Below are positions 14,547 to 51,187 of a stretch of 64,000 nt of DNA, one piece after another (position 1 is the first letter of the stretch; each line of letters begins with the position of its first letter). The notes beneath the pieces were generated by a model. The model was given only the letters and a program-made list of their open reading frames with translations. It did not search any database and was not told the origin of the DNA. This stretch comes from a virus. The stretch is from positions 1 to 64,000 of the IMG/VR virus record IMGVR_UViG_3300010399_000035, one strand, 5' to 3'. The translations under genes and the position numbers were made by a program.

Positions 14547-15162
14547 ACCCACCTCAACTACTCCACCTACCCCAGCTATAGGTCCACAACCCGAATGCTC
14601 CCCGCCTACCCGCCTTTGCCCTCACCCAGAAAACTGGCGCATGTACGATGGCGAGACAGCGGAGCTCGAAGTGCTCGCTTTTCTGGGCAGCATGGTTCGG
14701 CTACTGAAGCCGTCTATCGTAGTGGAGACTGGTTCGGCCTACGGGTACAGTGCCCTCAACATGGGTCAAGTTCTCCGTTTAAATGCAGACCGCTATAATT
14801 CGCCCGGACACCTGTTTTCATACGAGGCCGATCCGGTCCGAGCCCGCGAAGCAATGGGGCGGTGCGAAGGACTTCCGGTGAGCATTCTGAACTGCCATAC
14901 GTTGGAACCGGAACCAATCACGTGGGGCGTGGGGCCGATTGACCTACTCTATTTGGATAGCGACTTAGGCGCTAGGGTGCGGGAACTCAAACTCTTCCGC
15001 GAGAACCTATCTCCACGACACGTGATCCTGCTGCACGATACTGGCGAGACGCATGCTAGTCCACGACAGCAGTTAGAGGAGTATCGGGCAGAGCACCAGT
15101 TGCAGGTAGTAAACTTGGCTACTCCGCGTGGGTTGTCGATACTACAGTTCCCCAAACTATAG
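14506..15162 (+). CDS. Class I SAM-dependent methyltransferase (Methyltransf_24-like)
   Basis: VVETGSAYGYS motif I, IDLLYLDS, ILLHDT. Confidence 0.8.
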   Translation: MNCRSSQRGTTILEPTSTTPPTPAIGPQPECSPPTRLCPHPENWRMYDGETAELEVLAFLGSMVRLLKPSIVVETGSAYGYSALNMGQVLRLNADRYNSPGHLFSYEADPVRAREAMGRCEGLPVSILNCHTLEPEPITWGVGPIDLLYLDSDLGARVRELKLFRENLSPRHVILLHDTGETHASPRQQLEEYRAEHQLQVVNLATPRGLSILQFPKL

Positions 15163-15164
15163 CC

Positions 15165-15761
15165 ATGGAAACTAAGTGCTTCTTTCTCACTCCAACCCAC
15201 CGAGCAATCCTCGAGTTGCGAAGGTATTCCAGCACCAAGTGCCCAACCCCACATGGATACCACAACGCCACCACGAACTTAGGCGAAGTCTCCACCGACT
15301 ACAGCGGAGAGGCTCCTCCCAGAGAATACCCAAAATGGCCTAGGGCGTGCGAATGTGGGTACGTCTTCTTAGACACTGACCAGTGGCAGCAGAATAAGCA
15401 TACACTGTACGAACGTTCGGATGGTGGAGCGCCCACTACTCTGGGAGAGGCTCCGCCTGGGGCGATGTGGTATGCGGATTGGCTCCTGATTAGAGATCCC
15501 GCTCCAGGGCTGGAGAACTACAATCGCGGCCCGGATGGGCATTGCTTGATGGTTCGCTGTCCGGACGGCCACGACTGGTGTGTAGATGGACAGTGCAATA
15601 ACTGCACTATGCCAACGGACTACGTTCACAAGTGCTGGGTTCGCCACGGCACACCACCGGATATCACCGTGGACAAGAATGGCAATACTTGTGCTGCTGG
15701 AGCGGGTAGCATACAGACTAGATCGTGGCATGGATTTCTGCGGAATGGGGTGCTCGCTTGA
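15165..15761 (+). CDS. Cys/His-rich hypothetical protein (DUF6527-like C-terminus)
   Basis: CECG, VRCPDG..W, SIQ..WHGFLRNG. Confidence 0.5.
   Translation: METKCFFLTPTHRAILELRRYSSTKCPTPHGYHNATTNLGEVSTDYSGEAPPREYPKWPRACECGYVFLDTDQWQQNKHTLYERSDGGAPTTLGEAPPGAMWYADWLLIRDPAPGLENYNRGPDGHCLMVRCPDGHDWCVDGQCNNCTMPTDYVHKCWVRHGTPPDITVDKNGNTCAAGAGSIQTRSWHGFLRNGVLA
15304..15456. repeat. Two convergent motif copies (15304-15331 +, 15431-15456 -)
   Basis: GCGGAGAGGCTCCTCCCAGAG; rc GCGGAGCCTCTCCCAGAGTAGTGGGC. Confidence 0.7.
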
Positions 15762-16579
15762 AGCTTGCAGCGATATACAACTGTTGGGACGGCGAGGAAT
15801 TGTTAGAAGCCTCCATCCGGCAAATTCGCGCTCACACGGAAATCATCTTGGTTGTCTATCAAGAGCAGTCCAACTTCGAAGAGCCATACTCTCCGCTGCC
15901 AACGATTGAACGGCTCCAGTCTATAGGTCTGGTAGACTGTGCAATTCCCTTCCTACCAACCTTCAACATAGGCAGGGGTGGGGGTACGGTGAACGAAACT
16001 GTCAAACGGAACCTTGGCTTAGCGCAAGCCCGAGAACTGAATGCCACTCACTTCCTCCATATAGACTGTGATGAATTCTATGATACTGATCAATTCCGTC
16101 GTGCCAAAGCAACCCTGGAGCGTGGTTGGTTCGAGAGTTCAGCCTGCCATCTACAGACCTATTATCGCCGCCCACAGTACCAGTTATCCCCTCCAGAAGA
16201 ATACGGCGTTCCATTTATCCATAAGTTATATCCAGGTACCCACTGCGGACATCAGACGGGCGCAACCAGATACCCGGTTGAATGCGACCCGACCCGCTCA
16301 GTCTCGCACACTGAGGAGAACGGCAACGTAGGCAACTTCAAGCTTTTCAGTCGCGACGAGCTAGAAATGCACCATATGTCTTTCGTGCGTAAGAATACTG
16401 AATCCTTTAAGCGTAAATTACGTAATCATAGTAGTTGGTGGAAGCTAACCGAGAACCTGGAACAGGACGCTACGATGTTCGAGCAGTATGAGCCTGGACA
16501 ACCTCTGGTATGGTTCAAAGGCCATTCGCTGCTTAGCGTCCCGGACCAGTTTGGAATAGAGGGGATTTGTGAACAGTAA
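15725..16579 (+). CDS. GT-A fold glycosyltransferase
   Basis: ETVKRNLGL, HIDCDEFY (DxD), MHHMSFVR. Confidence 0.75.
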   Translation: MAWISAEWGARLKLAAIYNCWDGEELLEASIRQIRAHTEIILVVYQEQSNFEEPYSPLPTIERLQSIGLVDCAIPFLPTFNIGRGGGTVNETVKRNLGLAQARELNATHFLHIDCDEFYDTDQFRRAKATLERGWFESSACHLQTYYRRPQYQLSPPEEYGVPFIHKLYPGTHCGHQTGATRYPVECDPTRSVSHTEENGNVGNFKLFSRDELEMHHMSFVRKNTESFKRKLRNHSSWWKLTENLEQDATMFEQYEPGQPLVWFKGHSLLSVPDQFGIEGICEQ

Positions 16580-17837
16580 TACCGTACGTGTCAGACAAGT
16601 AGTACCACCAGCTGATCCAACACAGCAGGCCCAAACAGCTACAGGATTGGTGCGCACTCCGACACAGCAGCCAACCAAACCGACCAACTCTACTCCAACT
16701 CCACTCGCATCTAGCGCTAGGCCGCTCGTCACCGTCATTACAGCAACTCGCAACCGACCCGAGGCGTTCGAACTACTCGAAATCTGGATGGGAATGCAGA
16801 CCTATATCCAAGAGGAAATGGGGCCGCTAGAGTGGATCATCGTAAATGACGGCAAGTGGCAATACCCAAGCTCTACTCCACTAGCCGAGTTCCCACTTTG
16901 CTCTGCCCAGAAAATCGCGCGAACTCACGATTCGATGTCCGGCCATTCGATGTGCGGCAATCTTCTGGCCGCGATGGATGCATCCCATGGAGAAATCTTC
17001 GTGATAGCCGAGGACGATGATTACTTGGCTCCAGAATACATAGAGCGATTGGTACGGGCGCTGAACGAAACCTGGAACGATGAACAAGGAATGCGGACCG
17101 TTCAACTAGCCGGTTCCGCTCCGGCACTCTACTATAACCTCTACCTTCGTAAGTGGCGGGATATTCTGAACGAAGACCACTGCTCCCTAGGCCAGACTGG
17201 ATTCCGTAGTTCCGTGCTCCCACTGATGCGCGAGATTTGCACGCGTGGCAACCCGCTAGTGGACTTAGCAATCTGGGCAGAGTATGAGGGCCCCAAGGAG
17301 ATCTACCCTAACGACAACCTCCATGTCTCGATGAAGGGACTTCCTGGAGAACCAGGCATTGGGGCGGGGCATGGCGCGTGGCGTGGGTTCAGTAAGGACA
17401 CGCCCCGATTCGACAAACTCGAAGAGTGGATTGGGGATGATGCCGACCTTTATCGAGACTTATACAACCGTATGCTGTTCCGCAACGGTGTACAGTATTG
17501 GGTGGCCGACCAGGAGTACTGCTATAACCGCGATGAGACGAAGATAGTTTCCTCCCGCCATCGAGATGCTCACCACCTACTGGTGGCCGCAGGCGTAGAG
17601 CTGCCCCTCGCGGACGCCCAACGGATAGGCGTAGTCTCTCCAGAGAATTGGGCTCCATCGAAGAAGCCACCCATCCAGTTAGAACCGCGTAAGGAAGACG
17701 TGGAAATGGAGATGCGGCAGCAGTTTGCTGCTCGCCCATCCGTAATTAACACGATTGAGCGTGGTCCCATCGACCTTCGCACCGGACTTCCGCCAGGGCA
17801 AATCGCTCCGCTACCAACTGAAGATACCGACAGCTAA
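16569..17837 (+). CDS. GT2-family glycosyltransferase with C-terminal extension
   Basis: VTVITATRNRP, WIIVNDG, IAEDDDY. Confidence 0.8.
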   Translation: MNSNTVRVRQVVPPADPTQQAQTATGLVRTPTQQPTKPTNSTPTPLASSARPLVTVITATRNRPEAFELLEIWMGMQTYIQEEMGPLEWIIVNDGKWQYPSSTPLAEFPLCSAQKIARTHDSMSGHSMCGNLLAAMDASHGEIFVIAEDDDYLAPEYIERLVRALNETWNDEQGMRTVQLAGSAPALYYNLYLRKWRDILNEDHCSLGQTGFRSSVLPLMREICTRGNPLVDLAIWAEYEGPKEIYPNDNLHVSMKGLPGEPGIGAGHGAWRGFSKDTPRFDKLEEWIGDDADLYRDLYNRMLFRNGVQYWVADQEYCYNRDETKIVSSRHRDAHHLLVAAGVELPLADAQRIGVVSPENWAPSKKPPIQLEPRKEDVEMEMRQQFAARPSVINTIERGPIDLRTGLPPGQIAPLPTEDTDS

Positions 17838-17842
17838 AGCTA

Positions 17843-18532
17843 ATGGCAGATCCAGACTACACCCAATACCCCCAACCTACCGACATCCAGCAGTTGCTTG
17901 CGCTCACCAACCTATGGCCATCGCAGCCCACGGATGGAGCCAAGCAATCAGCACTGCTGGCGGAGTTCCAGATTCAACTGAACTCTGTGAAGCGGACCAT
18001 TGCGGAGAAGACAGGCTGGAAGCCATTCCTAGCGGACCCAACCCCATCTACTAGAACCTTCGACGCTTCCGATGGGTTCGGGTTTCTAGACCTCACGCCA
18101 GCGGAGACCGGCATAGTAGACGCGGCGAATAACCCTCCCACCATCATCATAGATGGTCGAACGCTAGTATTGAATACTGACTTCTTCTTGCAGACCAGCG
18201 ACGACGCAGCGGAGCTATGGCCGTACGATGGCATCCAGTTTGTCTCCGCGCCCTATGCAGGGCAGGTATTCGCCCTACCCAACAAGATTGCCATCACCGC
18301 CAGATTTGGATTCTGTAGCTCTCTCCCAGAAAATCTGTGGAGCGCCATTCGCGGCGAAGTCGCCGCAAAGACACTGAACATCATGGGCCTGACCTCCTTC
18401 CAGACAACGGTGCGTTCCCGGTCGCAAGAAGGCTTCTCCGAAACCTATGACTTTGGACCACTGATTGCGGATCGAATCAAGAGTTGGAGCGACGACTTCA
18501 AGGTAGCATACAGTCCGTACATACGACCATAG
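17843..18532 (+). CDS. Head-tail connector/adaptor (gp6-like)
   Basis: Position; ITARFGF..LP..L and SETY motifs typical of adaptors. Confidence 0.6.
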   Translation: MADPDYTQYPQPTDIQQLLALTNLWPSQPTDGAKQSALLAEFQIQLNSVKRTIAEKTGWKPFLADPTPSTRTFDASDGFGFLDLTPAETGIVDAANNPPTIIIDGRTLVLNTDFFLQTSDDAAELWPYDGIQFVSAPYAGQVFALPNKIAITARFGFCSSLPENLWSAIRGEVAAKTLNIMGLTSFQTTVRSRSQEGFSETYDFGPLIADRIKSWSDDFKVAYSPYIRP

Positions 18533-18536
18533 ACCA

Positions 18537-19208
18537 ATGCCTTCCTACTTAGCCCGAGGTTTCCTCAACCAACTCGCTAATGGCGATCCGTATCGCCTCT
18601 GGCAGGCTATCACCGTGGGTGCGGAGAACCCCAGCACCGGCTACCGCGCCCCAGTCAAGGCGACTGGGCAAGCCAAGGATGGCAGAGTTTACGTCGAGGT
18701 GCCGTTGCCCTCAACGGCGCGTGCGCTGAAGATTCGGAGCTCTATCGACATCGATTACAGTGCCCAAGGAATGGGCTTCTATCCGAAAGGTTCGCTAGCG
18801 GTACGGCTGGATCCCAACATTGCCTGGCCTGCCCATATGGATCGAATTACCTTGACGACTAGGTATCGATCAGCACGGATCAATGGGATTAACCGAACTG
18901 CTGGCAATAGTACGGACAAGTTGAAGCATCCGTTCATTAGTCAGATTCAACAGGTTCGCCAGTTCGATCAGATTTACGTGTTGGGGACGGACTACCAACT
19001 GGTACCCAATACTGACGTAAACGCGCCGTTCGCTTTCGATAGTATAAATTGGATAGGTAGCAAACCTGCCGACAACACATCCTACGGTATTAGCTACTTG
19101 TGGACGCCATATTACAACTTCCTATCTACGCCAGACAGCGAACCGATGCTTGGACTGGATAATCTGTGGCTGCCCATCACTGGTGTGTTGGATCAAGTGC
19201 TGACGTAG
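18537..19208 (+). CDS. Neck/head-closure protein
   Basis: Position; YVLGTDYQL..INW..P...YGISY beta motif. Confidence 0.5.
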   Translation: MPSYLARGFLNQLANGDPYRLWQAITVGAENPSTGYRAPVKATGQAKDGRVYVEVPLPSTARALKIRSSIDIDYSAQGMGFYPKGSLAVRLDPNIAWPAHMDRITLTTRYRSARINGINRTAGNSTDKLKHPFISQIQQVRQFDQIYVLGTDYQLVPNTDVNAPFAFDSINWIGSKPADNTSYGISYLWTPYYNFLSTPDSEPMLGLDNLWLPITGVLDQVLT

Positions 19209-33520: not shown

Positions 33521-34273
33521 TTACTCTATGTAGGCGGCTTCCCCGAAGGCTTGCGCCATGTACGGTGGAACGCCGTTGCCTATAGCACGATATAGCTCAA
33601 TCTCCCACTTGGTATATGAGCCTTCGAACCACGTAGGTTTCCTGTACCACTGCTTGGGAATCTCGAAGCCCATGTAGTAGGCGCACTCTTCAAGAGTAGG
33701 TTTGCGGCCGAACCAACGAGAAGCACGGCGACCGTCGGTAGCGCACCCCTTATACTCCGTAGCGCCAATTCCAGGACAGAGATCGTATTCGTGATAGTAT
33801 CGCTTGTAAGGCCTATGAACCTGTGGCTCTGGATACCTACCCCCAATGATACGGTTCCGGCACATGTTGGGCGTTGGGAGGAATTGAGCAGCGTTGTAGG
33901 CTCTACCCCATGTATTGCCGCTCTTGTGCTGTGTAGTCACGTTCTCTACCCAAAGAAGTGGATGCGGAAGCTGAAGCGAATACTCCAATAGGTCCGTCAT
34001 ATCTCGCGTGAAGGCTATCCCAGCAAAGTCACCTGTAGGAACTCCGGCTGTTCGCGATGATGAACGCCACTGACAAGGCGGGGAGGCCCAAATTCCTTCG
34101 TATCCCGATAGGTCTTGATCCAGCACATCCCCAATAATACACTCGCCAGCGCCAACGAATGTAGAAAGGTAGTGGGCGATCGGGTTGAGTTCAATACCTA
34201 CACAGAAGTGGCCAGCCCACTCCAAACCTTGGCGAGCCAGCCCAGCGCCGTCGAAGAGAACCGCTATTTTCAT
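33521..34273 (-). CDS. DNA cytosine-5 methyltransferase (compact)
   Basis: LFDGAG (I), SPPCQ (IV), ENV (VI), RNR (VIII), IGNGV (X). Confidence 0.88.
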   Translation of the reverse strand: MKIAVLFDGAGLARQGLEWAGHFCVGIELNPIAHYLSTFVGAGECIIGDVLDQDLSGYEGIWASPPCQWRSSSRTAGVPTGDFAGIAFTRDMTDLLEYSLQLPHPLLWVENVTTQHKSGNTWGRAYNAAQFLPTPNMCRNRIIGGRYPEPQVHRPYKRYYHEYDLCPGIGATEYKGCATDGRRASRWFGRKPTLEECAYYMGFEIPKQWYRKPTWFEGSYTKWEIELYRAIGNGVPPYMAQAFGEAAYIE

Positions 34274-34826: not shown

Positions 34827-36983
34827 TCATTCAGCCCTCCGTACCTTCACTCTCCTAATTCCAGGCTTCGTAACAGGCGTGGCCTTCTTCAATCCAGCCG
34901 CTTCCCACAGATTCACTATATGGTCCGTAGCCCCATATAAGTAACGCGGAGCGCCCCGCCCAAATGGATTCTCCGTGCGGGTCTTGGTGACTGCTCCCAG
35001 AAGATAGAGGTCTTCCAGTTGGTCGCGCAATGTTGAGAGGGGAATATCCAACTTCTCGCAGAGCGGTTCGATGAAGAAGTCTCCGTCATTACAGAATGCG
35101 GCCACCGCTTCCAGATTAAACCCCACGCAAGTATCCAAGGCTACGCGACTTACGATAGAGTAGTTGTCTTCGTCCAGCTTAGGTGTGTGGGACAGCAGCG
35201 AGAGCCCGTAGGTTAGCTTAGTCAATTGCTTGCCAATGCGGGTACCCATTTCATGCTGGGGACGGTACTGCAACTTCTCTTGCCCGCCCGACCAGGCTCG
35301 GTTCACATTAGCGCGAAGGATGCCGACCAGCGAAGCCAGCGCTACAATCTTCGTGATGAGCCACTCCGGCATGGCGGGTAGCGTATACGGATCTATCTTT
35401 ACCTCCACGAACCTACGTACGATGTCGTGAAGGTCCTCGCGCATGCCAATCTCTTGGCCTACGTTGCCTATGGCGGTGCGGATGGCGGCGTCCGCGTTCG
35501 GGTTGTGGCCTACTCCCTTGACCAAGTGGAACATCAAGAACCGCTCGCCAAGGGCTGCGGTTCGCTCACCGAACACGGCATGCGTCACGCCGCTGATCAT
35601 GTTGAATTGGACTTCGTAGTTGCGCACCAATCCGTTGCCGTAGTGCTTGGTGACGGAACCGTCGTAGGCTCCGCGTAGGGTGCCGTAGATTTCGTCGCGT
35701 TGGGTGGCAGGCAGGTTCAGTATCTCGGTGAAGTCCTTCAACACGAATGTCTTCTTGTTCAGCCTGGGGAGCAGGGACGGATCCCCACCGCCCCGCGTAG
35801 CGAAGCCGCTAACTAGGCTATGCGCCGTCAAGGTACTGGCGAAGTAGCAACTAGGGCAGCCGCTGAGAGGCATCAGGAGTTCCGTCTTCGCCGTCCCTGG
35901 AGGAGATACGATATGCATCCAGAGCGGATCCCCACCGATCTGGTTCGAGAGCACCACGGCGAAGATTAGCTTAAGGCCCGTCACCATATCGTCCGACATC
36001 TTCAGGTGCTGCCGGAACACAGATAGTACTTGGTCGAAGGTTGGGCGTTCGGTGGAATCTGGGGGCGGAAGCGATTCTATATGGGCAGCTTGCTCCGCTT
36101 GTTCGTTGATTTGGGCTTCGGAGACATAGATGGTAACTAGGGATTGGAGTTCCTGGTAGGTACCTCCGCTAACCACAAAGTCGCGGATGTCGAACTTATT
36201 AGGAAGAGAGGATGGCCACTTGACATGAAGGAAATCTTTGGCATGTCCGGCGAGTTTGCCGGCCAAACGATCGGTGCCCTTGACTCCGCCCGCGTCATGG
36301 TCGAAGCAGCATATGACGGTCCGCCCCGACACATACTCCGACCAACGATCCTTCCATACTCCTGCTCCGGGCACACCAATTACAACGCCTTCAGCGGAGC
36401 TCTGCTCCAGAAGATGGCGTAGGGCTATCGCATCCCATTCACCCTCGCAAACGTAGACAGGTTCGCAAGCCTTGGCTAGGTCCAGCAACGCAGCCAAGTT
36501 CCATATAGAGAGTTCCAGACCCCAGATGGACTCTAGCTTGAAGTCTTCGCCGCACCGACGAAAGTTAACGATTTTTCCGTGGCCATTGTAGATCGGGATG
36601 TACCAATGGACGCCATCGTGAACAATGCCAGTTGATTGTAGGACTTGCGGTGGTAGGTGGCGGCTAGCGGCTAGTTCGGCTAGCCATTCGGGCACCAGAC
36701 TAGAACTTAGTTCAGTCCCATTTAGTTGCGCGGTGGGAGTGGGCTGCGCGTACATGCGGTACCACTCCGCTAAGAACGTATAGGTATTACCGTTCAACCC
36801 ACAGGAGCCAGCCTTGCAATCCCACTGACCCGTTGCGGCGTTGATGTACAGCTTCTTGCGTCCTCCACAAAAGAGGCAGTCGCCGTAGTATTCGTCTCCC
36901 GCATGATTATCCGCGTGATATTCGAAGCCTAATGCGATGAACGGTCTAAGTTTGGGAGGAACTTCGGATGAGCTCCTCGCCAT
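34827..36983 (-). CDS. Primase-helicase (Zn finger, TOPRIM, AAA+/MCM-like, wHTH)
   Basis: CLFC..CKAGSC; CEGEWD, FDHD; SPPGTAKTE; LKDFT. Confidence 0.85.
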   Translation of the reverse strand: MARSSSEVPPKLRPFIALGFEYHADNHAGDEYYGDCLFCGGRKKLYINAATGQWDCKAGSCGLNGNTYTFLAEWYRMYAQPTPTAQLNGTELSSSLVPEWLAELAASRHLPPQVLQSTGIVHDGVHWYIPIYNGHGKIVNFRRCGEDFKLESIWGLELSIWNLAALLDLAKACEPVYVCEGEWDAIALRHLLEQSSAEGVVIGVPGAGVWKDRWSEYVSGRTVICCFDHDAGGVKGTDRLAGKLAGHAKDFLHVKWPSSLPNKFDIRDFVVSGGTYQELQSLVTIYVSEAQINEQAEQAAHIESLPPPDSTERPTFDQVLSVFRQHLKMSDDMVTGLKLIFAVVLSNQIGGDPLWMHIVSPPGTAKTELLMPLSGCPSCYFASTLTAHSLVSGFATRGGGDPSLLPRLNKKTFVLKDFTEILNLPATQRDEIYGTLRGAYDGSVTKHYGNGLVRNYEVQFNMISGVTHAVFGERTAALGERFLMFHLVKGVGHNPNADAAIRTAIGNVGQEIGMREDLHDIVRRFVEVKIDPYTLPAMPEWLITKIVALASLVGILRANVNRAWSGGQEKLQYRPQHEMGTRIGKQLTKLTYGLSLLSHTPKLDEDNYSIVSRVALDTCVGFNLEAVAAFCNDGDFFIEPLCEKLDIPLSTLRDQLEDLYLLGAVTKTRTENPFGRGAPRYLYGATDHIVNLWEAAGLKKATPVTKPGIRRVKVRRAE
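36394..36418 (+). repeat. Dispersed motif copy (in primase)
   Basis: GCGGAGCTCTGCTCCAGAAGATGGC. Confidence 0.8.
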
Positions 36984-38008
36984 TAGATAGTTGCTCCCTC
37001 CAAAAGTAGACCGCACTCGCGCAACTTGTCCAGCAGATAGGTGCCCATGCAATCGTCTACCAACTTCATAGTGGTGCCGAGTTCGTCATACGAAGAAATC
37101 CACGAAGGCTTGAGCGGCTCCGGGAAGTACATCTTGGCTCCCTCAATCCACCCTTCGCGAATCCACCGACCAAGCTGCTCAGCGGAGGGACGGTCACGGA
37201 GGGCTAGCTGGGCAAGGTCGGATAGCGTCAAGCCGGTATTCTTCTGAACTTGAACCACGCGATCATCCCATAGGGACTGCATGCGGAAGTCCTTCACGTT
37301 CGTCACCGGCAACTCTAGGCCAATGTGCTGCGCGCACCACTTCTCGACTACATCCCTGGCCTTAGAAGCATCGCGGGTGGGGTCGTCGCGGACGGATACC
37401 CGACTGGTGAAGATCCGCACGTCGTGGCCGCTGCAAACCCACTCGCGCACCCTAGAGACCATAAGCGGGATCGGTTCGCCAATGTAGTTGATACCTTTCC
37501 AAGAATCATACTCGGCCAAGGTACCGTCGAGGTCTACACCAATCCAACCATGCCGCTTGACCATCTCTCCCAGAAAAACCGGAGCTCCATTTTTCTGGGC
37601 AGCATTCACCGCGTACTGCTGGAGGTTATGGAGAGTGTGGTTTGGGTCAGTGGGGTGGGGTTTGGCTTCCATCCACAAATAGACATCCTTGGCTCCTTCC
37701 ACTTCGCGGAGGTAGCTACAGAACTTGGCTAGGTCCAAGCTGGGGCGGACTACATTCTCAGGCTGGAGGAAGTATGGCTTGGTGAGGGCGAACATCTTCG
37801 TGGTGCCCGAAGGCGTCCACATGAGCATCTGGTGCATGCGGTCCGAACGGACCTTGCGAATGGCGAACAAGCAGCCATCATACTGCCCGACGCCGCTGGT
37901 AATCTGGAAGCGATGGTCGGCTTCCTCGAGTTGGATGCCTTTTGGCTGTGGGGTGGGGGCGGGCTGCGGGGTTTCGGTGGACTCGGTTGAACTAGTTGTC
38001 TGACACAT
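36983..38008 (-). CDS. HAD-family phosphatase (PNKP-like) with N-terminal extension
   Basis: WIGVDLDGTL, IFTSR, LWDDR. Confidence 0.75.
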   Translation of the reverse strand: MCQTTSSTESTETPQPAPTPQPKGIQLEEADHRFQITSGVGQYDGCLFAIRKVRSDRMHQMLMWTPSGTTKMFALTKPYFLQPENVVRPSLDLAKFCSYLREVEGAKDVYLWMEAKPHPTDPNHTLHNLQQYAVNAAQKNGAPVFLGEMVKRHGWIGVDLDGTLAEYDSWKGINYIGEPIPLMVSRVREWVCSGHDVRIFTSRVSVRDDPTRDASKARDVVEKWCAQHIGLELPVTNVKDFRMQSLWDDRVVQVQKNTGLTLSDLAQLALRDRPSAEQLGRWIREGWIEGAKMYFPEPLKPSWISSYDELGTTMKLVDDCMGTYLLDKLRECGLLLEGATI

Positions 38009-38043: not shown

Positions 38044-40197
38044 CTATACGTCGATCGCTACCTTATCATCCCAGGACGACACGCAACGCTTAAACTCAAC
38101 CGGCATGGGGACATCAATGCGGCCTTCGTTGTCGGACATGATATCAATCATGCCGCGAACCAGCCAACGGTAGGCATCTTCCTGGTGTACTTCGAAGATG
38201 ATTTCGTCATGCACTGGCATGACAACGTAGGCGCGAGCGCCAACCTCCTTGAAGTACTTCTCGCACCGGACCATGGAATCCTTCACCATACAGGCTGCGG
38301 TGGATTGAATCATGTAGTTGACCGCTTTGTAAGGCTTATCTTCCTCGATGTGAACCTTACGACCGTATGGGTTCACGATGTACCCATCCCGCGATGCTTG
38401 CTTGATGAGCATATCCATATACTGCCGCATCTCTGGGAGCGCTCCGCTCAGTTCGCGGAGGAATTGGGTGGCTTCCTGGAGCGAACAGTAGAGGAGCTCC
38501 GTAATGGTGCTTGGCCCTCCACCATAGATCATAGCGAACATGATGACTTTTGCTCGACCCCGACTGTTACTCTTGCCGACGGACTTCTCTGCCTTGACGA
38601 TGTCGTAGTTATGTCTGGCCAGAAAATGGTCCGCCAACTCCTGGGAGCGTTGGGAGTAGAATCCATAGGTCATAGCGGCCTTGGAGTTCCACTCATACTC
38701 CTGCCAGAGCGCGGCCACTTCTGGGGACGAAGGTTCGTTTCGACCTAGGTCCAGCGCATACGAAGCCGCCTTCAACGCGGAGGGATTGTTGCGCCCACCC
38801 CAAGCCTTGTTTGCGCAAGCGGAGTTGGGGTCTCGTCCGGCGGATATCTCTTGGAGTAGGAAGGGGATTTGCCCAATGGAGGCGAAGAGACGCAACTCCT
38901 GCTGTGCATAATCTCCAGCGTACCAGACGTGACCAGCACGAGGGCCGAAAGGTATCCTTGGACGATAAGAACCAATGTTCGCGTGTGCTGTCTTCGGGTT
39001 ACCGACTTGCTGTAAGTTCGGATTGTTGCAACTGAGCCGGAACGTGGTAGTTCCGCATTGATTCACCGATGGGTGGACGCACATACCTCCCGGTGCCAGC
39101 GGGTCCGGCAGCATGAGTTCAAGATACTTATCGAAGAAGAGTTTGATCGCCTGCTCCGCAGCCCGGTAGCCTACGAGCTCCAACACGAACGGTTCCGTCA
39201 TGAGTTCGCGGAGGGCATTCTTGTCGGTGGAATATTCGCCGCTGTCCGATGTTCGCGTGGTCGTTAGGCCTAATCCACCTTGCTCTGGCGGGTTGTACAG
39301 CAAGCGGCGAAGCTGAAGCGGAGAGTTGGGATTGAATACCAAGTCTTCAAGACTAACTACAGTGGCATATGCTTCTGGACTGTGCGGCCGCAGCCCTTTC
39401 TCTTCAATCATCCGCAACATCGATTGATGGTGCTTGTTCAACGCCGTTCGTGCCTTGGCCAATTCCTCTTTGACTTTTTCTGGTGAGAGTCGCATCCCTC
39501 GGCGTTCCAACTTCACCATGATCGGCCAGAGTTCACGCTCCGCCTCGTACCCCGCTGCCAGCAGAGGATCGTTGGCGAACTTCTCCTGATAGTAGAGATG
39601 TAGCCCCATGGTACGGAAGGTATCCATGCGACAGTACTGCTCGCAGCCTTCGGAATCCAGATTGAAGCACTTAGGGAGCCAGTAGTCCTGTTCCGCTACT
39701 TCGCCAAGTTTAATTAGCGGAGAGTTGGTTTTAGCAGCTTGCCGATTGAGCGATTGGCAATGTCGCCGCCACTTCTTCACTTCCTCGCGAAGGGTAGACT
39801 CATCGTCGATCGGGATGCCGAGATACTTGCGGGCGAGCGGCTTGAGTTGGTAGGTATACTCCAGATTGTAAGCCACGCGGGCCTCAATGTGGGTGTCGTG
39901 GATTGGCCCGGCCATGGGGATACCCAGTGTCTCCAGCATGAAGCAGTCGAACTTCGCATTATGGAAGATTTTCGGTAAGTCGCTCCGGGCACACAGTGCC
40001 CGAAGCCACTCTATATCTTCTTCCACCACTTCTGGTTCCCTGGTATACGGATCCACACCCCACTCCACATAAGCGGTGTTGCCATCTTGATCGCACAGTC
40101 CCACGGCGAACGGCTTATCGCCGTGCCAATGCATAATTCCGCTTGTTTCGGTGTCTATGGCGACAGCTTCGGTTGGGTTGAACTTGCCTATGTCCAT
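38044..40197 (-). CDS. polA: DNA polymerase family A (3'-5' exonuclease plus polymerase)
   Basis: DTET, FHNAKFD, YCRMD; DYAQQELR, RAKVIMFAMIYG, VHDEI. Confidence 0.95.
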   Translation of the reverse strand: MDIGKFNPTEAVAIDTETSGIMHWHGDKPFAVGLCDQDGNTAYVEWGVDPYTREPEVVEEDIEWLRALCARSDLPKIFHNAKFDCFMLETLGIPMAGPIHDTHIEARVAYNLEYTYQLKPLARKYLGIPIDDESTLREEVKKWRRHCQSLNRQAAKTNSPLIKLGEVAEQDYWLPKCFNLDSEGCEQYCRMDTFRTMGLHLYYQEKFANDPLLAAGYEAERELWPIMVKLERRGMRLSPEKVKEELAKARTALNKHHQSMLRMIEEKGLRPHSPEAYATVVSLEDLVFNPNSPLQLRRLLYNPPEQGGLGLTTTRTSDSGEYSTDKNALRELMTEPFVLELVGYRAAEQAIKLFFDKYLELMLPDPLAPGGMCVHPSVNQCGTTTFRLSCNNPNLQQVGNPKTAHANIGSYRPRIPFGPRAGHVWYAGDYAQQELRLFASIGQIPFLLQEISAGRDPNSACANKAWGGRNNPSALKAASYALDLGRNEPSSPEVAALWQEYEWNSKAAMTYGFYSQRSQELADHFLARHNYDIVKAEKSVGKSNSRGRAKVIMFAMIYGGGPSTITELLYCSLQEATQFLRELSGALPEMRQYMDMLIKQASRDGYIVNPYGRKVHIEEDKPYKAVNYMIQSTAACMVKDSMVRCEKYFKEVGARAYVVMPVHDEIIFEVHQEDAYRWLVRGMIDIMSDNEGRIDVPMPVEFKRCVSSWDDKVAIDV

Positions 40198-40276: not shown

Positions 40277-40594
40277 CTATAGTACCCAGAACTTATCGTA
40301 CAATGCTAGTGCGCTCGCCCGTTCGTCGAGCGTCATAGCCCGAAGTAGGTTAATACACCGCTGGCACACGTCGGCAAGATGGGTGGATTCTGTCGGGTCG
40401 GTTCGCGCTTGGTTAACCTGCTGCTGGCAGAAGTCTAGGTGATCATCTTCGAGGTTCCAGTCGTCGATCACGATATGTAAGTGGCCACCTGTACTGTGTA
40501 AATTGTATACCTCAGCAATTGCGGTGGCCGATTGGTATACCAAGGTGTTGTCGAGCATAGGAGCGCCATACTTCTGCCAGCAGCCGTAGCACAT
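40277..40594 (-). CDS. Hypothetical protein
   Basis: MCYGC...GGHLHIVIDDWNLED; TAATG overlap with SDR. Confidence 0.55.
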   Translation of the reverse strand: MCYGCWQKYGAPMLDNTLVYQSATAIAEVYNLHSTGGHLHIVIDDWNLEDDHLDFCQQQVNQARTDPTESTHLADVCQRCINLLRAMTLDERASALALYDKFWVL

Positions 40595-41349
40595 TAGACG
40601 CCCATCCCTCCCGGCATAGTCAGTACGGTGCCGGAGCACTGTTCGGGCAGACTGTTCACGGCGAAGTCGTACAGCTTCCAGACTTCCTCGAAAGTACATC
40701 CGCGTCCGAATGGGCTCTGGGAGAAGTACTTGGTGGCTTGCTCTTCGGACATGCCCCGCGTCCGCTGGAGCTCACGGATGGCTTGCGCCTTCATCTCCGT
40801 GTCGTCAATGCCGCCAGGGGCGATGGAGCACACAACGATGGGCAACCGCCCCGCGAACTCCTTCGCGAAGACCTTCGTCAAGGCATCCAGTCCAGCCTTC
40901 GAAGCACAGTACCCAGGGCTAGCTCGGAGGCTAATTTTGGTGCCCATGGACGAAGTGTTCACAATGCGGCGAAGTCGTTCTCGGGGGACGGATTCGTCGT
41001 TTTTAACTCGACGGGCGAATTCCCGGCAGAAAAGGAACGGAGCCACCAGGTTCACATTTAAAACGGCGCTGAAATCCCCCAAGGAATGGTTCTCGAGGAA
41101 GTCGATCTTGGTCATGCCTGCATTGTTAATGAGGACGTCGATTGGGCCACCCATGGAAGCTTCAGCCTGGTCGAAGATGTGGTTAAGTTCTTCTTCGAAC
41201 GAGTATGGTTCGGGGTAGGTGGCGTTGAAGTCGCTCTCGAAGTCCGGTCCGCCCAAGCCCACGCCGAACACCTCATGCCCTTGCTCCAGCAGTCGTTCCC
41301 GGATATAGGCTCCAATGCTGCGCGAGCAGCCTGTCATTAAGATTCTCAT
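40594..41349 (-). CDS. Short-chain dehydrogenase/reductase (SDR)
   Basis: TGCSRSIG, LINNAG, NTSS, YCASK. Confidence 0.9.
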   Translation of the reverse strand: MRILMTGCSRSIGAYIRERLLEQGHEVFGVGLGGPDFESDFNATYPEPYSFEEELNHIFDQAEASMGGPIDVLINNAGMTKIDFLENHSLGDFSAVLNVNLVAPFLFCREFARRVKNDESVPRERLRRIVNTSSMGTKISLRASPGYCASKAGLDALTKVFAKEFAGRLPIVVCSIAPGGIDDTEMKAQAIRELQRTRGMSEEQATKYFSQSPFGRGCTFEEVWKLYDFAVNSLPEQCSGTVLTMPGGMGV

Positions 41350-41702
41350 TCTTTCCGTTCCCTTCTAGTGTCTACCTGCTTCGACAAGCGGGAGAAATTC
41401 TCCATATCGTCGTAGGTGTCTTCGTTGTAGTCGTACGGTCGAGCCGCACGGACAGCCTTGATCATGACCATGACCAATCCCGCTACATGTGGCGGAATGG
41501 CGTGTGGTAGCTTGATGTTGTAGTGTGCCTCGATGAGTCCAGTGAGCGCGATGCCCGTAGCGCGGAAGGAGTCGTTGGCGTCGCCGTAGACCTTGGACCT
41601 CTCGGCGGTGATGGCGTCTAGCTTTCCGTTGCCATTTAAATTGCGTTTAGAGCCATTTACAGGCGACTTGGGCGGTTTGGCGAAGGAAGCGCTGTGGCTC
41701 AT
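41346..41702 (-). CDS. DUF6378-like phage protein
   Basis: ERSKVYGD..F, MVMIKAVR, EDTYDD. Confidence 0.65.
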   Translation of the reverse strand: MSHSASFAKPPKSPVNGSKRNLNGNGKLDAITAERSKVYGDANDSFRATGIALTGLIEAHYNIKLPHAIPPHVAGLVMVMIKAVRAARPYDYNEDTYDDMENFSRLSKQVDTRRERKE

Positions 41703-42934
41703 GATTGGTCTCCTGGAAGGCCATTCATGGCGTCGAAGCCCCACACTTCGGAGAACTTGGCCGCGTTACGTTCCAGCATCTCGGCTTCGACGGGTCGGGT
41801 GGGGGTCCAGTTGCGGATATCCTTCGCCTGCTCAAGGTCATCTCGACCGTTACGCGCCATCCAAGCTGGGTTGTCTATTCCGCTAACTTTTCCGGAGAGC
41901 GCATCGTCTACAGCCTGCAGTGCCTCTTCCGTCTGATATCGTATGAAAATGGGGCAAGGTGGCATACCATCACTACCCTGGATCCGCTCCACATTCGTCC
42001 CGGCGACGGGGCAGCCAACGTACTTCCCCTTCTTGATGCACTTGGGCAAGCCTACCACCGCGAAGAGCGGATCGACTTCCACCAAGCATTTGCGCATGCC
42101 CATGATGACAGGTTCCCAAAGGCCAGCCTGTGCGACCCAAGATGCGCGCTTCCCCAGAATATGGATCATCGCGGCCAGATTCACGCTCCACGTGATGTCT
42201 CCGGTGGCACCGACGGGGACGAGTTGGCGGCAGTCTTCGATGTGGACTCCTGCTTTCTGCAACTTGCGGTATGCGTCCTGTAGCTGCTTCATTACATCCC
42301 GGTAGAACTTCTCCGCCGGAATTGGCGCTGGTACCCAACCATTCTCTCCGTCGTGGACGTGGTTCTCTACCATCTTCCCCTTCAACGACTCCGGCACTAT
42401 GTACCGACCTTCGTCGTAGAAGGTATCGAATGGGATTACACGCGAGGTCTGCGCCCACCAACTCGAATCGTGGAAGTTGGGAATCTGGTCCATGTGCTGC
42501 AACCCCTCCCCAGCCAATAGGTGCTGTATGGGTTCGGGGATGATATCCACCCCAACACGCGGATCCAACTTCGTGCCCAGACGATGGCGCACCAACTGTT
42601 CGCGGAGGGAGATCGGGATACCTTGCAGATGGAAGACGAAGTTGAGGTTCTCTACAACTGGGATGCTCTCGGCGAGGATCATCTCGACTTCGGCGCGGAT
42701 GGAAGCGGCGCAGTCACGAACTGCGTTGGTATCCTTATCGAATCCAAGCATTCTACAGTCGGACAGGACTGCATCGTGCTTCCAACCAAAGGTTGGCATT
42801 CCGTCCTTACTGGCTTTCAGAATGCTTTCTATATCCTCGGGGCTCGGCAGTGGCTTGTTCGAGCGCGACTGACGCCAAATGTAGAACAGCGTGCCAACAG
42901 GGTGGGATGGGGCGGAGATGAGACTGACTTTCAT
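41699..42934 (-). CDS. thyX: Divergent ThyX-like flavin-dependent thymidylate synthase
   Basis: REQLVRHR; QTSR after an insert; EDCRQLVP...VNL..HILGKR. Confidence 0.75.
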   Translation of the reverse strand: MKVSLISAPSHPVGTLFYIWRQSRSNKPLPSPEDIESILKASKDGMPTFGWKHDAVLSDCRMLGFDKDTNAVRDCAASIRAEVEMILAESIPVVENLNFVFHLQGIPISLREQLVRHRLGTKLDPRVGVDIIPEPIQHLLAGEGLQHMDQIPNFHDSSWWAQTSRVIPFDTFYDEGRYIVPESLKGKMVENHVHDGENGWVPAPIPAEKFYRDVMKQLQDAYRKLQKAGVHIEDCRQLVPVGATGDITWSVNLAAMIHILGKRASWVAQAGLWEPVIMGMRKCLVEVDPLFAVVGLPKCIKKGKYVGCPVAGTNVERIQGSDGMPPCPIFIRYQTEEALQAVDDALSGKVSGIDNPAWMARNGRDDLEQAKDIRNWTPTRPVEAEMLERNAAKFSEVWGFDAMNGLPGDQS

Positions 42935-42960
42935 GATTCTCGGTTCCTTTTTAACGGCTT

Positions 42961-42987
42961 GGCTATCTTCTGGGAGAGATGCTCCGC
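42961..42987 (-). repeat. Dispersed motif copy upstream of thyX-like
   Basis: rc GCGGAGCATCTCTCCCAGAAGATAGCC. Confidence 0.95.
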
Positions 42988-42990
42988 AGT

Positions 42991-43308
42991 TCACGTAACG
43001 GGTACTTTGGCGGCGGAGGTTGGTGGGAAGTCCATCCAGCCGTGCTCGACAATACGGACATCCCAGTATTCAGGCATTTCGGCGCACATGAGCTCGGCAG
43101 ACTCGCGGTCCGCGAAGTGGAGTCCTTTGTTGGGATCGGTGGTCCAGCAGACGCCTTGGGTGTGCTGGTCGATCCGCCACGATATGAATCCGGTGACTCC
43201 GTTCGGTGTGTCCGCGATTAGTTCCGGAGTGTACTTGTCCAGGCGCGGTTCGAATGGCGTGCCTTGGAAGTACTGCTCGATCATCCAACAGGTTTGTCCT
43301 GGTTCCAT
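42991..43308 (-). CDS. Hypothetical protein
   Basis: WTTDPNKGLHFADRESAE; in operon. Confidence 0.5.
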   Translation of the reverse strand: MEPGQTCWMIEQYFQGTPFEPRLDKYTPELIADTPNGVTGFISWRIDQHTQGVCWTTDPNKGLHFADRESAELMCAEMPEYWDVRIVEHGWMDFPPTSAAKVPVT

Positions 43309-43340
43309 AATTTCTCTTCTGTGGTTGGGTCGGGTTGGAG

Positions 43341-43964
43341 TTACAAGCTAATGGAATGCCCTGCCCGCTTCATGATTTCCTTGACGAGCTCCACCGTCTG
43401 GTCAACTAAGGGACGGATGAAGTCGTACCGAGGGTTCATGAATATGGCGGTGTAGTCGCGCATAGTTTGGTAGTTTTCTACCACGGTGGAGTTAGCGTTC
43501 GTGACCTCAGCGTAGAGGTAGCTCACCACGGACAGGTAGTCGGCGAAGGCTACGATGGCACCCTCGTTAGTGGAGTCCTTCGCGTTGGCCCACATTACCG
43601 CCATGCGCGTGGCGTAGGTCGGGTCTGGGTAGAGCACACTAATGAGGGTCTCTATCTCCTTTTCCGCAGCTGCATCCAACGCATCTTTAAGTTGCGGATT
43701 GGAGTATTTGAACGGCCTCTGAAAATCGCCTGTGCGGGCTTCGTCCATGTCGTGAATCAACGCACGACGGAGCACCTGCAGTTCGTCAACGTCGGTGCGG
43801 TGGGTCTCCTTGCGAATCCAATCGCAAATGAACATGGAATAGACGGCAACGTACGCGGTGTGCTCTGCAACATTCTCCCGATGCAACACCAAACTGGTCG
43901 AATGCCGGTTCACATAGCGAAGCCGGTTCACGTCGCCCGTCAGCAGTGTTCGTATGTTTAGCAT
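43341..43964 (-). CDS. HD-domain 5'-deoxynucleotidase (YfbR/DatZ-like)
   Basis: ENVAEH, LIHDMDEARTGD, FAD. Confidence 0.85.
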   Translation of the reverse strand: MLNIRTLLTGDVNRLRYVNRHSTSLVLHRENVAEHTAYVAVYSMFICDWIRKETHRTDVDELQVLRRALIHDMDEARTGDFQRPFKYSNPQLKDALDAAAEKEIETLISVLYPDPTYATRMAVMWANAKDSTNEGAIVAFADYLSVVSYLYAEVTNANSTVVENYQTMRDYTAIFMNPRYDFIRPLVDQTVELVKEIMKRAGHSISL

Positions 43965-44683
43965 TCGGCCTCCACTTCAACCATACGCGGAGTATCCTCT
44001 CCAGAGGAGGGCCCAGTTTCTGGTAGGGTTTCCTGCTGGGCAGCCCAGGCTTCGCAAACGGACCAGTTGAAGTGTTGGGCCTTCACCGGCAAATTAGCGA
44101 GCTCACCACTGATGCCATATACGCTGGTGAGACGGCTACGATCGTAGATAGAGTTGGGGATGCAGCCGCTGAGTTCGGAGTCCAGGAACAGTGCCAACCT
44201 GGAGTACCCAGACAGGAGCCCGTCGCAGCCATGCGTCAACATAACGTTCAAGTGCTCAGCCTTCTTCGTTGGGTGGAAGCCGACGACAAGCTTGCCTAGT
44301 CCTCTGGCCGTACCCATCTCCCAAACTGTACCTGTGTCGGGGAGTTCGAGCTCCCTTATAGGCACGGTGATATCCACCTTCAAATCGGTGTATTCGCTGT
44401 GCTTCGGTTCCAACTTGCAAGCGCAAATGCGCTCGTTCGGCGGTAACGCATACGCAAGCACCGCCAAGAGCAAATCACACTCCTGGATGGACTGCTCGTT
44501 CCAGTTGAAGAGGGGGAGCCAAGCGGCAGGATTCTTGCGCTGGTCCTTCGGGGGTAGGAAGGGCTCGCTGCCGAGTCGAGGGGAGAGGAATTCGTGTCCG
44601 GCAGAGGTGATTATGTCTTCAATTGTGGCAATGATGCCGCGTTGGGGCTCGTTGAAGAGCGGTGCGGCTATGTAGATTTTCAT
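43958..44683 (-). CDS. Nucleoside 2-deoxyribosyltransferase-like N-glycosidase
   Basis: IYIAAPLFN, DTGTVWEMG, LNVML. Confidence 0.85.
   Translation of the reverse strand: MKIYIAAPLFNEPQRGIIATIEDIITSAGHEFLSPRLGSEPFLPPKDQRKNPAAWLPLFNWNEQSIQECDLLLAVLAYALPPNERICACKLEPKHSEYTDLKVDITVPIRELELPDTGTVWEMGTARGLGKLVVGFHPTKKAEHLNVMLTHGCDGLLSGYSRLALFLDSELSGCIPNSIYDRSRLTSVYGISGELANLPVKAQHFNWSVCEAWAAQQETLPETGPSSGEDTPRMVEVEAEC
43987..44033. repeat. Degenerate palindromic motif dimer
   Basis: GCGGAGTATCCTCTCCAGAGGAGGGCCCAGTTTCTGGTAGGG. Confidence 0.8.
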
Positions 44684-44704: not shown

Positions 44705-44737
44705 CCAGGGAGTAGCGCCTACGGCGCTACTCCCTGG
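44705..44737 (-). terminator. Perfect 15-bp hairpin after SSB gene
   Basis: CCAGGGAGTAGCGCC-TAC-GGCGCTACTCCCTGG. Confidence 0.6.
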
Positions 44738-50488: not shown

Positions 50489-51187
50489 TTACTGAGAACC
50501 TTTAGGTAGTGCAGCTGGCGGCATTGGTCCAGGGGCCATCGCTTCGCGGAGGTCTTCTATATATTGCTGGGTAGCGGCGTCCTTATCCAATTGGCGGACC
50601 ACCCACGATGGGTGCCGCACGGCGCGTAGCCGGAACGTATGGCCGGAACGCTGTGCGATGTTGGGTGCGTAGTCTAGCGGAACTTTGCCGGTTACAATGA
50701 TGATTCGCGGTTGGAGTAGGCGAACGAGTTCGGTTAAGCGGGGCGCGCAGGCCTCTATTTCATTATGGTCCGGAGCACGGTTCGCTGGATGGCTGGGGCG
50801 GAGTGCCCATGGGCGGCAAGCCAGTAAGTTGGTCAGGGTATAGGGGGCGGTGTTGCCAGTGGCAGCGATACACTCCCGCAGAAGCTGCCCTGCAGGGCCG
50901 ACGAAGGGCCGTCCAAGGACGTTCTCCCCAACTCCGGGCCCTTCGCCGATAAACATGAATGGGGGCTTTAAATCGGCGTGTACACCATATACGGGCGTGG
51001 TGGGGGCGGACGTCGTCGCTGTAGTATTCGGTGGCAGTTCGGCTAGCGGTGGCTGAGCCGGGACCACGATTTCGAACAGCACATGATGCTTCGCGGAGAC
51101 TCCTAGTGGGCAGCGTTGGCAGGTAGACCACTCATTTACGAGCGGTTCAAGGATTGGGAGGGAGCGGAGGATGGTGTCGTTAGACAT
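50489..51187 (-). CDS. Uracil-DNA glycosylase family 4-like
   Basis: CQRCPL, IGEGPG..E...GRPFVGPAG, CRP..NRAP, HPS. Confidence 0.88.
   Translation of the reverse strand: MSNDTILRSLPILEPLVNEWSTCQRCPLGVSAKHHVLFEIVVPAQPPLAELPPNTTATTSAPTTPVYGVHADLKPPFMFIGEGPGVGENVLGRPFVGPAGQLLRECIAATGNTAPYTLTNLLACRPWALRPSHPANRAPDHNEIEACAPRLTELVRLLQPRIIIVTGKVPLDYAPNIAQRSGHTFRLRAVRHPSWVVRQLDKDAATQQYIEDLREAMAPGPMPPAALPKGSQ

Follow-up and report, generated by a model that had tools for sequence, protein, structure and literature searches.

The DNA analysed here, referred to as the window, covers the initial 64 kb of an IMG/VR virus record (IMGVR_UViG_3300010399_000035) that is 85 kb long, was assembled from a soil metagenome and has an estimated completeness of ~80%. 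The stretch was present in one DNA run only, a soil metagenome that is probably its source, and no RNA runs were listed. Structural genes occupy the plus strand up to ~33.5 kb and are followed by a replication/early region encoded on the minus strand. Within this region, five genes had been singled out by a reading of the letters alone (the original prediction) as a candidate pathway for non-canonical nucleotides. They encode a nucleoside 2-deoxyribosyltransferase (NDT) family protein, an HD phosphohydrolase, a divergent ThyX-like protein (hereafter ThyXl), a DUF6378 protein and a short-chain dehydrogenase/reductase (SDR). All five are present on the minus strand, exactly where they had been placed. 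Together they make up a real and conserved module, at whose core lies a new ThyX subfamily that shows signs of altered catalysis.

Following the direction of transcription, all on the minus strand, the module starts with the NDT gene (43958-44683, 241 aa; PF05014, E=2.9e-12), which has an AAGGAG Shine-Dalgarno sequence upstream and overlaps by 7 nt the gene of the YfbR-like HD phosphohydrolase (43341-43964, 207 aa; PF12917, E=2.6e-24; phrog_7076, E=4e-20). A small open reading frame (ORF) comes next, orf105 (42991-43308), whose product is without a family match and is not conserved even in a 76%-identical relative. ThyXl (PF02511, E=2.7e-16) is encoded by an ORF spanning 41699-42994, with translation probably starting at the ATG at 42934, which has AAGGA in front and gives a protein of 411 aa (41699-42934). 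Its stop codon shares an ATGA with the start of the gene for the DUF6378 protein (41346-41702, 118 aa; PF19905, E=2.8e-07), whose ORF extends over 41346-41744 and whose start is probably the ATG at 41702, with GGAG in front. This gene overlaps by 4 nt that of a classical, FabG-like SDR (40594-41349, 251 aa; adh_short, E=1.1e-29). Then follow orf140 (40277-40699), which has an uncertain start, with its longest frame overlapping the SDR gene, and is conserved only in the 76%-identical relative, and, immediately downstream of the module, the gene of a family A DNA polymerase, PolA (38044-40197, 717 aa). No terminator-like sites were found on the coding strand between 40277 and 44683, and the genes from NDT to orf140, followed by polA, would constitute a single transcription unit. 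The tight packing, the overlaps and the adjacency to polA reported originally are all borne out. The HAD phosphatase reported beside them (36983-38008, minus strand, 341 aa) is better described as putative: it has weak PHROG matches (E=3e-06 and 2e-05) and a DLDGTL motif, and no Pfam match.

ThyXl scored 60.3 bits against PF02511, passing the gathering cut-off of 24.8, and 49.5 bits against the NCBIfam equivalog TIGR02170, below its trusted cut-off of 87.9. When its sequence was searched against the PDB, ThyX was matched only at E~0.1. An AlphaFold model built on 81 relatives (pLDDT 89) was compared with known structures using VIA and aligned with ThyX from Mycobacterium tuberculosis (2af6; Z=13.4, root-mean-square deviation (rmsd) 3.0 over 207 residues), ThyX from Thermotoga maritima (5chp; Z=13.1, rmsd 2.8 over 201 residues) and the UMP/dUMP methylase PolB (Z=12.1); Foldseek related it to ThyX with an E-value of about 1e-05. 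On the evidence of this model, ThyXl has the ThyX fold. To the ThyX core it adds a helical N-terminal insertion (residues ~23-83), a low-confidence insert (120-160) and a C-terminal extension of ~110 aa. The N-terminal insertion gave weak matches to LuxR/GerE-type helix-turn-helix domains (Z~5 over ~55 residues), a noise-level score for helical segments.

The ThyX signature is interrupted in ThyXl. The RHR and [S/T]xR peptides are separated by 44 residues in the window protein, compared with 7 in canonical ThyX, which corresponds to an insert of ~37 aa and agrees with the ~35-aa insert said to split the RHRx7S motif. Among the 81 relatives the spacing is most often 25 residues (49/81), and in only one is it 7. 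Residue conservation was assessed in the family alignment of these 81 sequences, whose register is backed by an HMMER alignment to T. maritima ThyX. R111, Q113, R116, R165, R236, R263 and Q269 are invariant. Five of these positions, Q113, R116, R165, R236 and R263, are the equivalents of the dUMP-binding residues Q75, R78, R90, R147 and R174 of canonical ThyX (81/81 in each case); the equivalent of Q180 is invariant as well, and those of H79 and R80 are nearly so. Compared with the flavin-dependent thymidylate synthases of PF02511 (TM0449 and M. tuberculosis ThyX), ThyXl has conserved equivalents of Q75, R78, H79, R80, S88, R90, E144, R147, N163, R174 and Q180, whereas those of His59 and His178 are replaced, and it differs further by its N-terminal helical insertion and its C-terminal extension, in which three cysteines (C299, C308 and C327) are invariant. 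Judging from this alignment, ThyXl keeps the residues that hold the (d)UMP phosphate and uracil, together with most flavin-site residues.

Two catalytic positions have a different fate. The equivalent of Tyr91 (position 166) is occupied by valine (39), isoleucine (28), methionine (11), leucine (2) or alanine (1), and by tyrosine in none of the 81 sequences; across the same set, no conserved histidine was found in the His53 segment, which precedes the IPVxEN strand. In ThyX, Tyr91 and Ser88 have been called strictly conserved and critical; Tyr91 acts as the general acid in the methylene-transfer/reduction half-reaction, and flavin oxidation becomes 1000-fold slower when it is mutated; its partner, His53, is the residue stacked on the folate (PMC11940539). 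Likewise, the Tyr99Ala change in PolB nearly abolishes activity (PMC5003785). Since the nucleotide-binding residues are invariant but Tyr91 and a conserved His53 are missing, ThyXl seems to have kept the nucleotide site and lost the canonical acid/folate pair. These two losses, along with the insert in the active-site loop and the three-cysteine extension, suggest that ThyXl probably does not run the standard reductive methylation.

The ThyXl family comprises 57 IMG/VR loci and, in a set of 5.8 billion proteins, 40 clusters. No relatives were retrieved when 185,579 species genomes were scanned by pattern. Cultured phages yielded no close copy, the best match having 26% identity, and a megablast search with 12 kb of the window gave no match among them. 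By these searches, the family appears to be exclusive to phages and confined to viral contigs. Gene neighbourhoods were counted using tblastn and clustering of the ORFs across related loci. About 30 loci have a common gene order: SNF2, uracil-DNA glycosylase (UDG), PD-(D/E)XK, Sak4, DUF669, NDT, HD, DUF6378, (SDR), ThyXl, PolA and primase-helicase. Because the same order recurs in ~30 independent viral contigs, the arrangement is far from what chance would produce; the search for neighbourhood conservation proposed along with the original prediction thus had a positive outcome. Outside the window, the partners were counted in distinct ThyXl loci as follows: HD in 27, NDT in 21, DUF6378 in 19 and SDR in only 7. 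In the relatives, variable genes are found between DUF6378 and ThyXl, encoding radical S-adenosylmethionine (SAM)/SPASM proteins (11 loci), unknown paralogues, a SAM methyltransferase, a dCMP deaminase and a NADAR protein.

A second ThyXl group (type-B) is found in DnaE-type phages, in ~20 loci (e.g. L010, L015:7087-11691, L027, L029 and L043). In these phages, ThyXl is part of a conserved block of overlapping genes encoding an amine-oxidase/DAO-like flavoprotein, an NT5C-like nucleotidase, ThyXl itself, a class III (omega) aminotransferase and a Tmk-like kinase. Such chemistry would be suited to converting an aldehyde on a C5 side chain into an amine. In a quick tree, the DnaE-type group forms a derived clade. 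This context carries over to the window only weakly, because the window protein belongs to a separate long-form clade. The HAD-like protein of the window showed no similarity to the NT5C-like protein of the type-B loci.

We took a census of thymidylate-synthase genes and of purZ in 50 ThyXl-containing records, 17 of them near-complete (>=90%). A ThyA-type gene (PF00303) was found in none of the 50, and most of the 17 near-complete genomes have no thymidylate-synthase-type gene other than ThyXl. A canonical ThyX of 219 aa (119 bits) occurs beside ThyXl in a single type-B record (L063:5742-6401, in the 71.7-kb G033), the only such case among the 50. Four records carry a second, shorter Thy1-family paralogue (L014:319-1227, L021:6739-7647, L026:1759-2643 and L060:5290-6171) with the same C-terminal cysteine motif; it has lost the first arginine of RHR, has no insert and is encoded upstream of a radical SAM/SPASM gene.

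The nearest cultured relative of ThyXl is gp124 of Listeria phage LIS04 (LIS04_124), which matches the ThyXl profile with E=1e-44. It has the N-terminal PVGTL..W..SR motif, WxQTSR and KRxSWIAQxxLW in common with ThyXl, including family-specific motifs outside the Thy1 core, and its locus, like the window, brings together PolA, an HD protein and an NDT. It differs in having RSK in place of RHR, canonical spacing and no cysteine triad. We know of no analysis of LIS04 DNA. A more distant relative is gp081 of Yersinia phage YerA41 (hhalign 94.8%, E=5e-08), given as the thymidylate-synthase homologue of that phage (PMC12686479), which shares with ThyXl the C-terminal signature GKRxxWIAQ...N.ERI.G.D and, unlike ThyXl, lacks the cysteine triad. 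In YerA41, an HD gene lies directly upstream of the polymerase gene and two SDRs are nearby; the polymerase itself and the PolA of the window have generic palm similarity only. Bacillus phage SP-15 resembles the window in arrangement only: an NDT (gp127), a FabG-like SDR (gp129) and a 413-aa Thy1-like protein (gp130) are clustered, and the genes for the last two overlap. The authors of the SP-15 study put gp130 forward as a hypothetical hydroxymethyluridylate synthase (PMC5977210). The SDR of the window shows only generic similarity to gp129, and no orthology could be detected between gp130 and ThyXl (hhalign probability 6%). YerA41, SP-15 and Carin-5 have experimentally established thymidine hypermodification (PMC13697223, PMC12686479, PMC9023294). 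The members of the SP15-like group are myoviruses of 145-222 kb with UDG-fused polymerases and sugar-building clusters, in contrast to the 85-kb record and the PolA of ordinary length described here, and even in that group what the ThyX-derived proteins do biochemically is a proposal.

The module also bears comparison with the ThyA-based pathways of SPO1 and phi-e, which make 5-hydroxymethyldeoxyuridine (5-hmdU), and of M6, ViI and PaMx11 (Lee et al., PMC8989533). In both cases, a thymidylate-synthase relative is encoded beside replication genes and is accompanied by nucleotide-pool hydrolases and variable tailoring enzymes (radical SAM, flavoprotein and pyridoxal-phosphate enzymes). The difference lies in the one-carbon enzyme, which here has the unrelated ThyX fold, ThyA being absent from all 50 records.

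The NDT protein passes the PF05014 cut-off (47.2 bits against 28.8) and has a catalytic-glutamate motif (PDTGTVWEMG). D116, G118, E122, N146 and M148 are invariant in an alignment of 18 relatives. With the fold motifs and the catalytic glutamate, it resembles the nucleoside 2-deoxyribosyltransferases, from which it differs by an internal insertion of ~40 residues and a C-terminal extension. Its profile matched true deoxyribosyltransferases in the PDB with E-values from 5e-25 to 1e-06 (best 6evs, E=5e-25; also 7o62 and 1s2d), compared with only 0.1-0.5 for the hydrolase group of DNPH1/Rcl, MilB and BlsM (0.12 for 4jen, 0.25 for 5vto and 0.38 for 4fyh). We therefore rejected an assignment as a deoxynucleoside monophosphate (dNMP)/CMP N-glycosidase of the MilB/BlsM/DNPH1 kind, and the analogy with MilB and DNPH1 drawn originally does not hold.

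The HD protein carries the HDxxExxxGD motif and belongs to the clade of YfbR (a 5'-deoxynucleotidase), OxsA and DatZ. Its PDB matches were Lin2634 (E=2e-08), YfbR (7e-07), OxsA (5e-04) and DatZ (2e-03). It scored 86 bits against PF12917 and 54.5 bits against the NCBIfam equivalog NF003009, whose cut-off is 122; it thus has the HD fold and motif in common with YfbR, OxsA and S-2L DatZ and remains below the YfbR equivalog cut-off. It also matches proteins of YerA41, LIS04 and the RHph Rhizobium phages. The analogy with a DatZ/MazG-type purge of canonical nucleotides fares poorly: the HD protein is closer to YfbR and Lin2634, PurZ is absent from all 50 records, and DUF6378 is a very large family found beside canonical ThyX too.

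DUF6378 is indeed mostly viral, with 5525 representative clusters. The model of the window protein is a four-helix bundle (pLDDT 90), and its top VIA matches are enriched in MazG-like proteins, with Z scores of 4.1-6.3 that fall in the noise range for helical bundles (2p06, 6.3; 2yxh, 5.2; 4qgp, 4.9; 7ody, 4.7; 3c90, 4.3; 2a3q, 4.1; 3cra, 4.1). The conserved residues are R35, Y39, G40, K82, R85, D95 and D99 (R, YGD, K..R, D...D), and there is no EExxE motif; the model is possibly that of a MazG-like fold with a different motif set. DUF6378 gave no sequence match in the PDB, no Foldseek match and no informative domain fusions, and a search of the ESM Atlas returned nothing outside its own family. 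A tblastn search with two DUF6378 proteins gave no match among cultured phages, and a separate word-indexed search with DUF6378 brought up only 2 proteins. In the Faecalibacterium prausnitzii phage FP01, DUF6378 adjoins a canonical ThyX (PMC13432834), so its presence is not diagnostic of DNA modification.

The SDR has the TGCSRSIG (TGxxxxxG), NNAG and YCASK (S...YxxxK) motifs and scored 103.7 bits against adh_short. Its best PDB matches are FabG enzymes, with the alignment to 2p68 spanning residues 4-249, and every NCBIfam match is far below its equivalog cut-off. An assignment as FolM/pteridine reductase found no support, as the top matches are all FabG-like. The SDR is a generic FabG-like enzyme and an optional member of the module; the place given to it as a key step in the original prediction is not upheld, in view of its occurrence in only 7 other loci.

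Taken together, we favour the view that the module is more than a dTMP supply and encodes a non-canonical C5-pyrimidine nucleotide pathway, to which we give a probability of about 45%. The direction of the original inference, a modified pyrimidine, therefore survives: it is backed by the lack of Tyr91 and His53, the restriction of ThyXl to phages, the association with NDT and HD in ~30 loci, the relatives in LIS04 and YerA41 and the SP-15 arrangement. The analogies put forward in its support (MilB/DNPH1, DatZ/MazG and the SDR) do not. Several points weigh against the pathway. A modified base or sugar is a proposal from genes alone, and the nucleotide-binding residues of ThyXl are intact. The conserved Trp159/Trp160 could stand in for Tyr91, and the window protein is without two residues kept by most relatives, having glycine in place of His245 (histidine in 77/81) and serine in place of Cys265 (cysteine in 67/81). 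NDT resembles a true transferase and not a dNMP glycosidase, and YfbR-family nucleotidases are also encoded by phages with ordinary DNA, such as T5 (Dmp). DUF6378 accompanies a canonical ThyX in FP01, the PolA of the window is not of the SP15-like type, and orthology between ThyXl and SP-15 gp130 is not detectable. Neither a 5-hmdU DNA kinase nor an aGPT-Pplase was found among the scanned proteins of the ~80% complete record, and no dedicated dNMP kinase or nearby glycosyltransferase was found in it. Finally, the contigs were assembled from a standard soil metagenome.

Much of this evidence bears on an explanation that follows close behind in probability, a divergent but genuine thymidylate synthase that boosts dTMP as part of an ordinary nucleotide economy. 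According to it, HD, NDT and possibly HAD would recycle the breakdown products of host DNA, DUF6378 would be a generic accessory, perhaps for dUMP supply, and the SDR would be unrelated or a redox-helper accessory. ThyXl passes the Pfam Thy1 threshold, has the ThyX fold and retains all dUMP-binding arginines and glutamines. That it is the only thymidylate-synthase-type gene in most of the complete genomes, with no ThyA, is what would be expected if it simply makes dTMP. The FP01 neighbourhood, the likeness of NDT to true deoxyribosyltransferases, the SDR in only 7 other loci and genomes that assemble normally all fit this explanation too. It is harder to reconcile with the absence of Tyr91 from 81/81 sequences and of a conserved His53, both important for canonical catalysis, with a score well below the thyX equivalog cut-off (49.5 against 87.9 bits), and with the presence of ThyXl alongside a canonical ThyX in one record and of paralogues in four. 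Furthermore, the omega-aminotransferase/amine-oxidase block of one clade has no role in dTMP synthesis, and the nearest cultured relatives are within the thymidine-hypermodified phage group. We regard as improbable that ThyXl is not a mononucleotide C5-transferase at all, being either dead or regulatory, or acting on another substrate (dCMP, a ribonucleotide, or uracil in DNA or RNA), with its N-terminal insertion and Cys-rich extension binding nucleic acid. The helix-turn-helix-like matches of the insertion, three invariant cysteines that could form a metal site, and a sister paralogue without the first RHR arginine in four loci would be in keeping with such roles. However, the helix-turn-helix signal is at noise level, the arginines for the 5'-phosphate and for uracil O4/N3 are invariant, pointing to free (d)UMP as the substrate, and a dead protein would hardly be so strongly conserved in 81 sequences. 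The least probable explanation, by a wide measure, is a 2-aminoadenine (Z-genome) purge with HD as DatZ and DUF6378 as MazZ. HD does match phrog_7076, annotated as 'dATP triphosphohydrolase', and DatZ weakly (E=2e-03), and the DUF6378 model weakly resembles S-2L MazZ (Z=4.7), but HD is closer to YfbR/Lin2634, and PurZ, the adenylosuccinate-synthetase homologue, is absent from all 50 records, including the 17 near-complete ones, which effectively refutes a PurZ-DatZ-MazZ system.

In the C5-pyrimidine pathway that we favour, the module would remodel the deoxypyrimidine pool of the infected cell. The product of ThyXl would be a C5-substituted dUMP that is not dTMP; in the simplest case, water would capture the exocyclic methylene to give 5-hydroxymethyl-dUMP. 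The translationally coupled SDR would work on the new side chain through alcohol/aldehyde redox chemistry, and DUF6378, as a pyrophosphatase of the MazG-like kind, may provide the nucleotide substrate or clean it. The canonical nucleotide or nucleoside that competes with the product would be drained or diverted by NDT and the HD 5'-deoxynucleotidase, and the phage PolA would insert the product as a partial or full replacement of thymidine. Phages with bulky modified thymidines resist sequencing (PMC12686479). That the genomes studied here assemble from ordinary metagenomes makes it likely that any modification is small or partial. More speculatively, and in our judgement rather unlikely as a whole, ThyXl could be the first ThyX-fold enzyme with a non-methyl product. 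Acting as a C5-transferase that depends on flavin and is possibly assisted by a metal or an Fe-S cluster, it would make 5-hydroxymethyl-dUMP or a further-tailored dUMP before replication. The new side chain would be oxidised or reduced by the SDR in the window clade; the amine-oxidase-like flavoprotein and omega-aminotransferase would play the corresponding part in the DnaE-type clade, for example from 5-formyl- to 5-aminomethyl-dUMP, and the family would represent widespread, undescribed pre-replicative thymidine replacements in soil and other phages.

To our knowledge, every biochemically established phage route to 5-substituted pyrimidines begins with a ThyA-fold enzyme, and a route through the ThyX fold is so far a conjecture, made for SP-15 gp130 only. 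ThyXl is a family widespread in viral metagenomes, with signs of changed catalysis and fixed partner genes. A non-methyl product, if true, would mean new flavin chemistry, would help explain how the pathway starts in hard-to-sequence thymidine-hypermodified phages and would allow modified DNA to be recognised in metagenomes by a sequence marker. Should plain dTMP be its product, then ThyX works without its 'strictly conserved' Tyr/His pair, which matters for the design of ThyX-targeted antibiotics.

Downstream of the SDR gene lie orf140, PolA, the HAD-like protein, whose assignment is weakly supported, and a primase-helicase; upstream of NDT are genes encoding DUF669, a Sak4-like ATPase, a PD-(D/E)XK nuclease, a family-4-type UDG and an SNF2 helicase. 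Among enzymes that could provide dUMP, trimeric dUTPase, dCTP deaminase and dCMP deaminase were not found in the window's record. The gap between DUF669 and NDT, at the upstream boundary of the module, contains a palindrome (44705-44737) with a perfect 15-bp GC-rich stem and a 3-nt loop; no U-run follows the stem on the coding (minus) strand, and the palindrome may be one of the genome's module-boundary dyads. The replication module also encodes a stand-alone UDG-superfamily protein (50489-51187, minus strand), whereas SP15-like phages have an active UDG as a fusion with their polymerase.

At 33521-34273, on the minus strand, a 250-aa ORF matches only the C-terminal part (208-321 of 324) of a C5 cytosine DNA methyltransferase profile and may be truncated or split. 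In the late region, a run of overlapping genes on the plus strand (13647-19208) includes those for a Methyltransf_24 SAM methyltransferase and a family-2 glycosyltransferase (especially 14506-15162 and 16569-17837), which could glycosylate virion proteins or, less likely, DNA. Of 66 ORFs of the record that were scanned in bulk, one matches the 2H phosphoesterase/anti-CBASS Acb1 families. Genes in the rest of the record include those for a response-regulator receiver-domain protein and a DUF6745 protein (L061:16685-17323, plus strand, and L061:11676-12791, minus strand).

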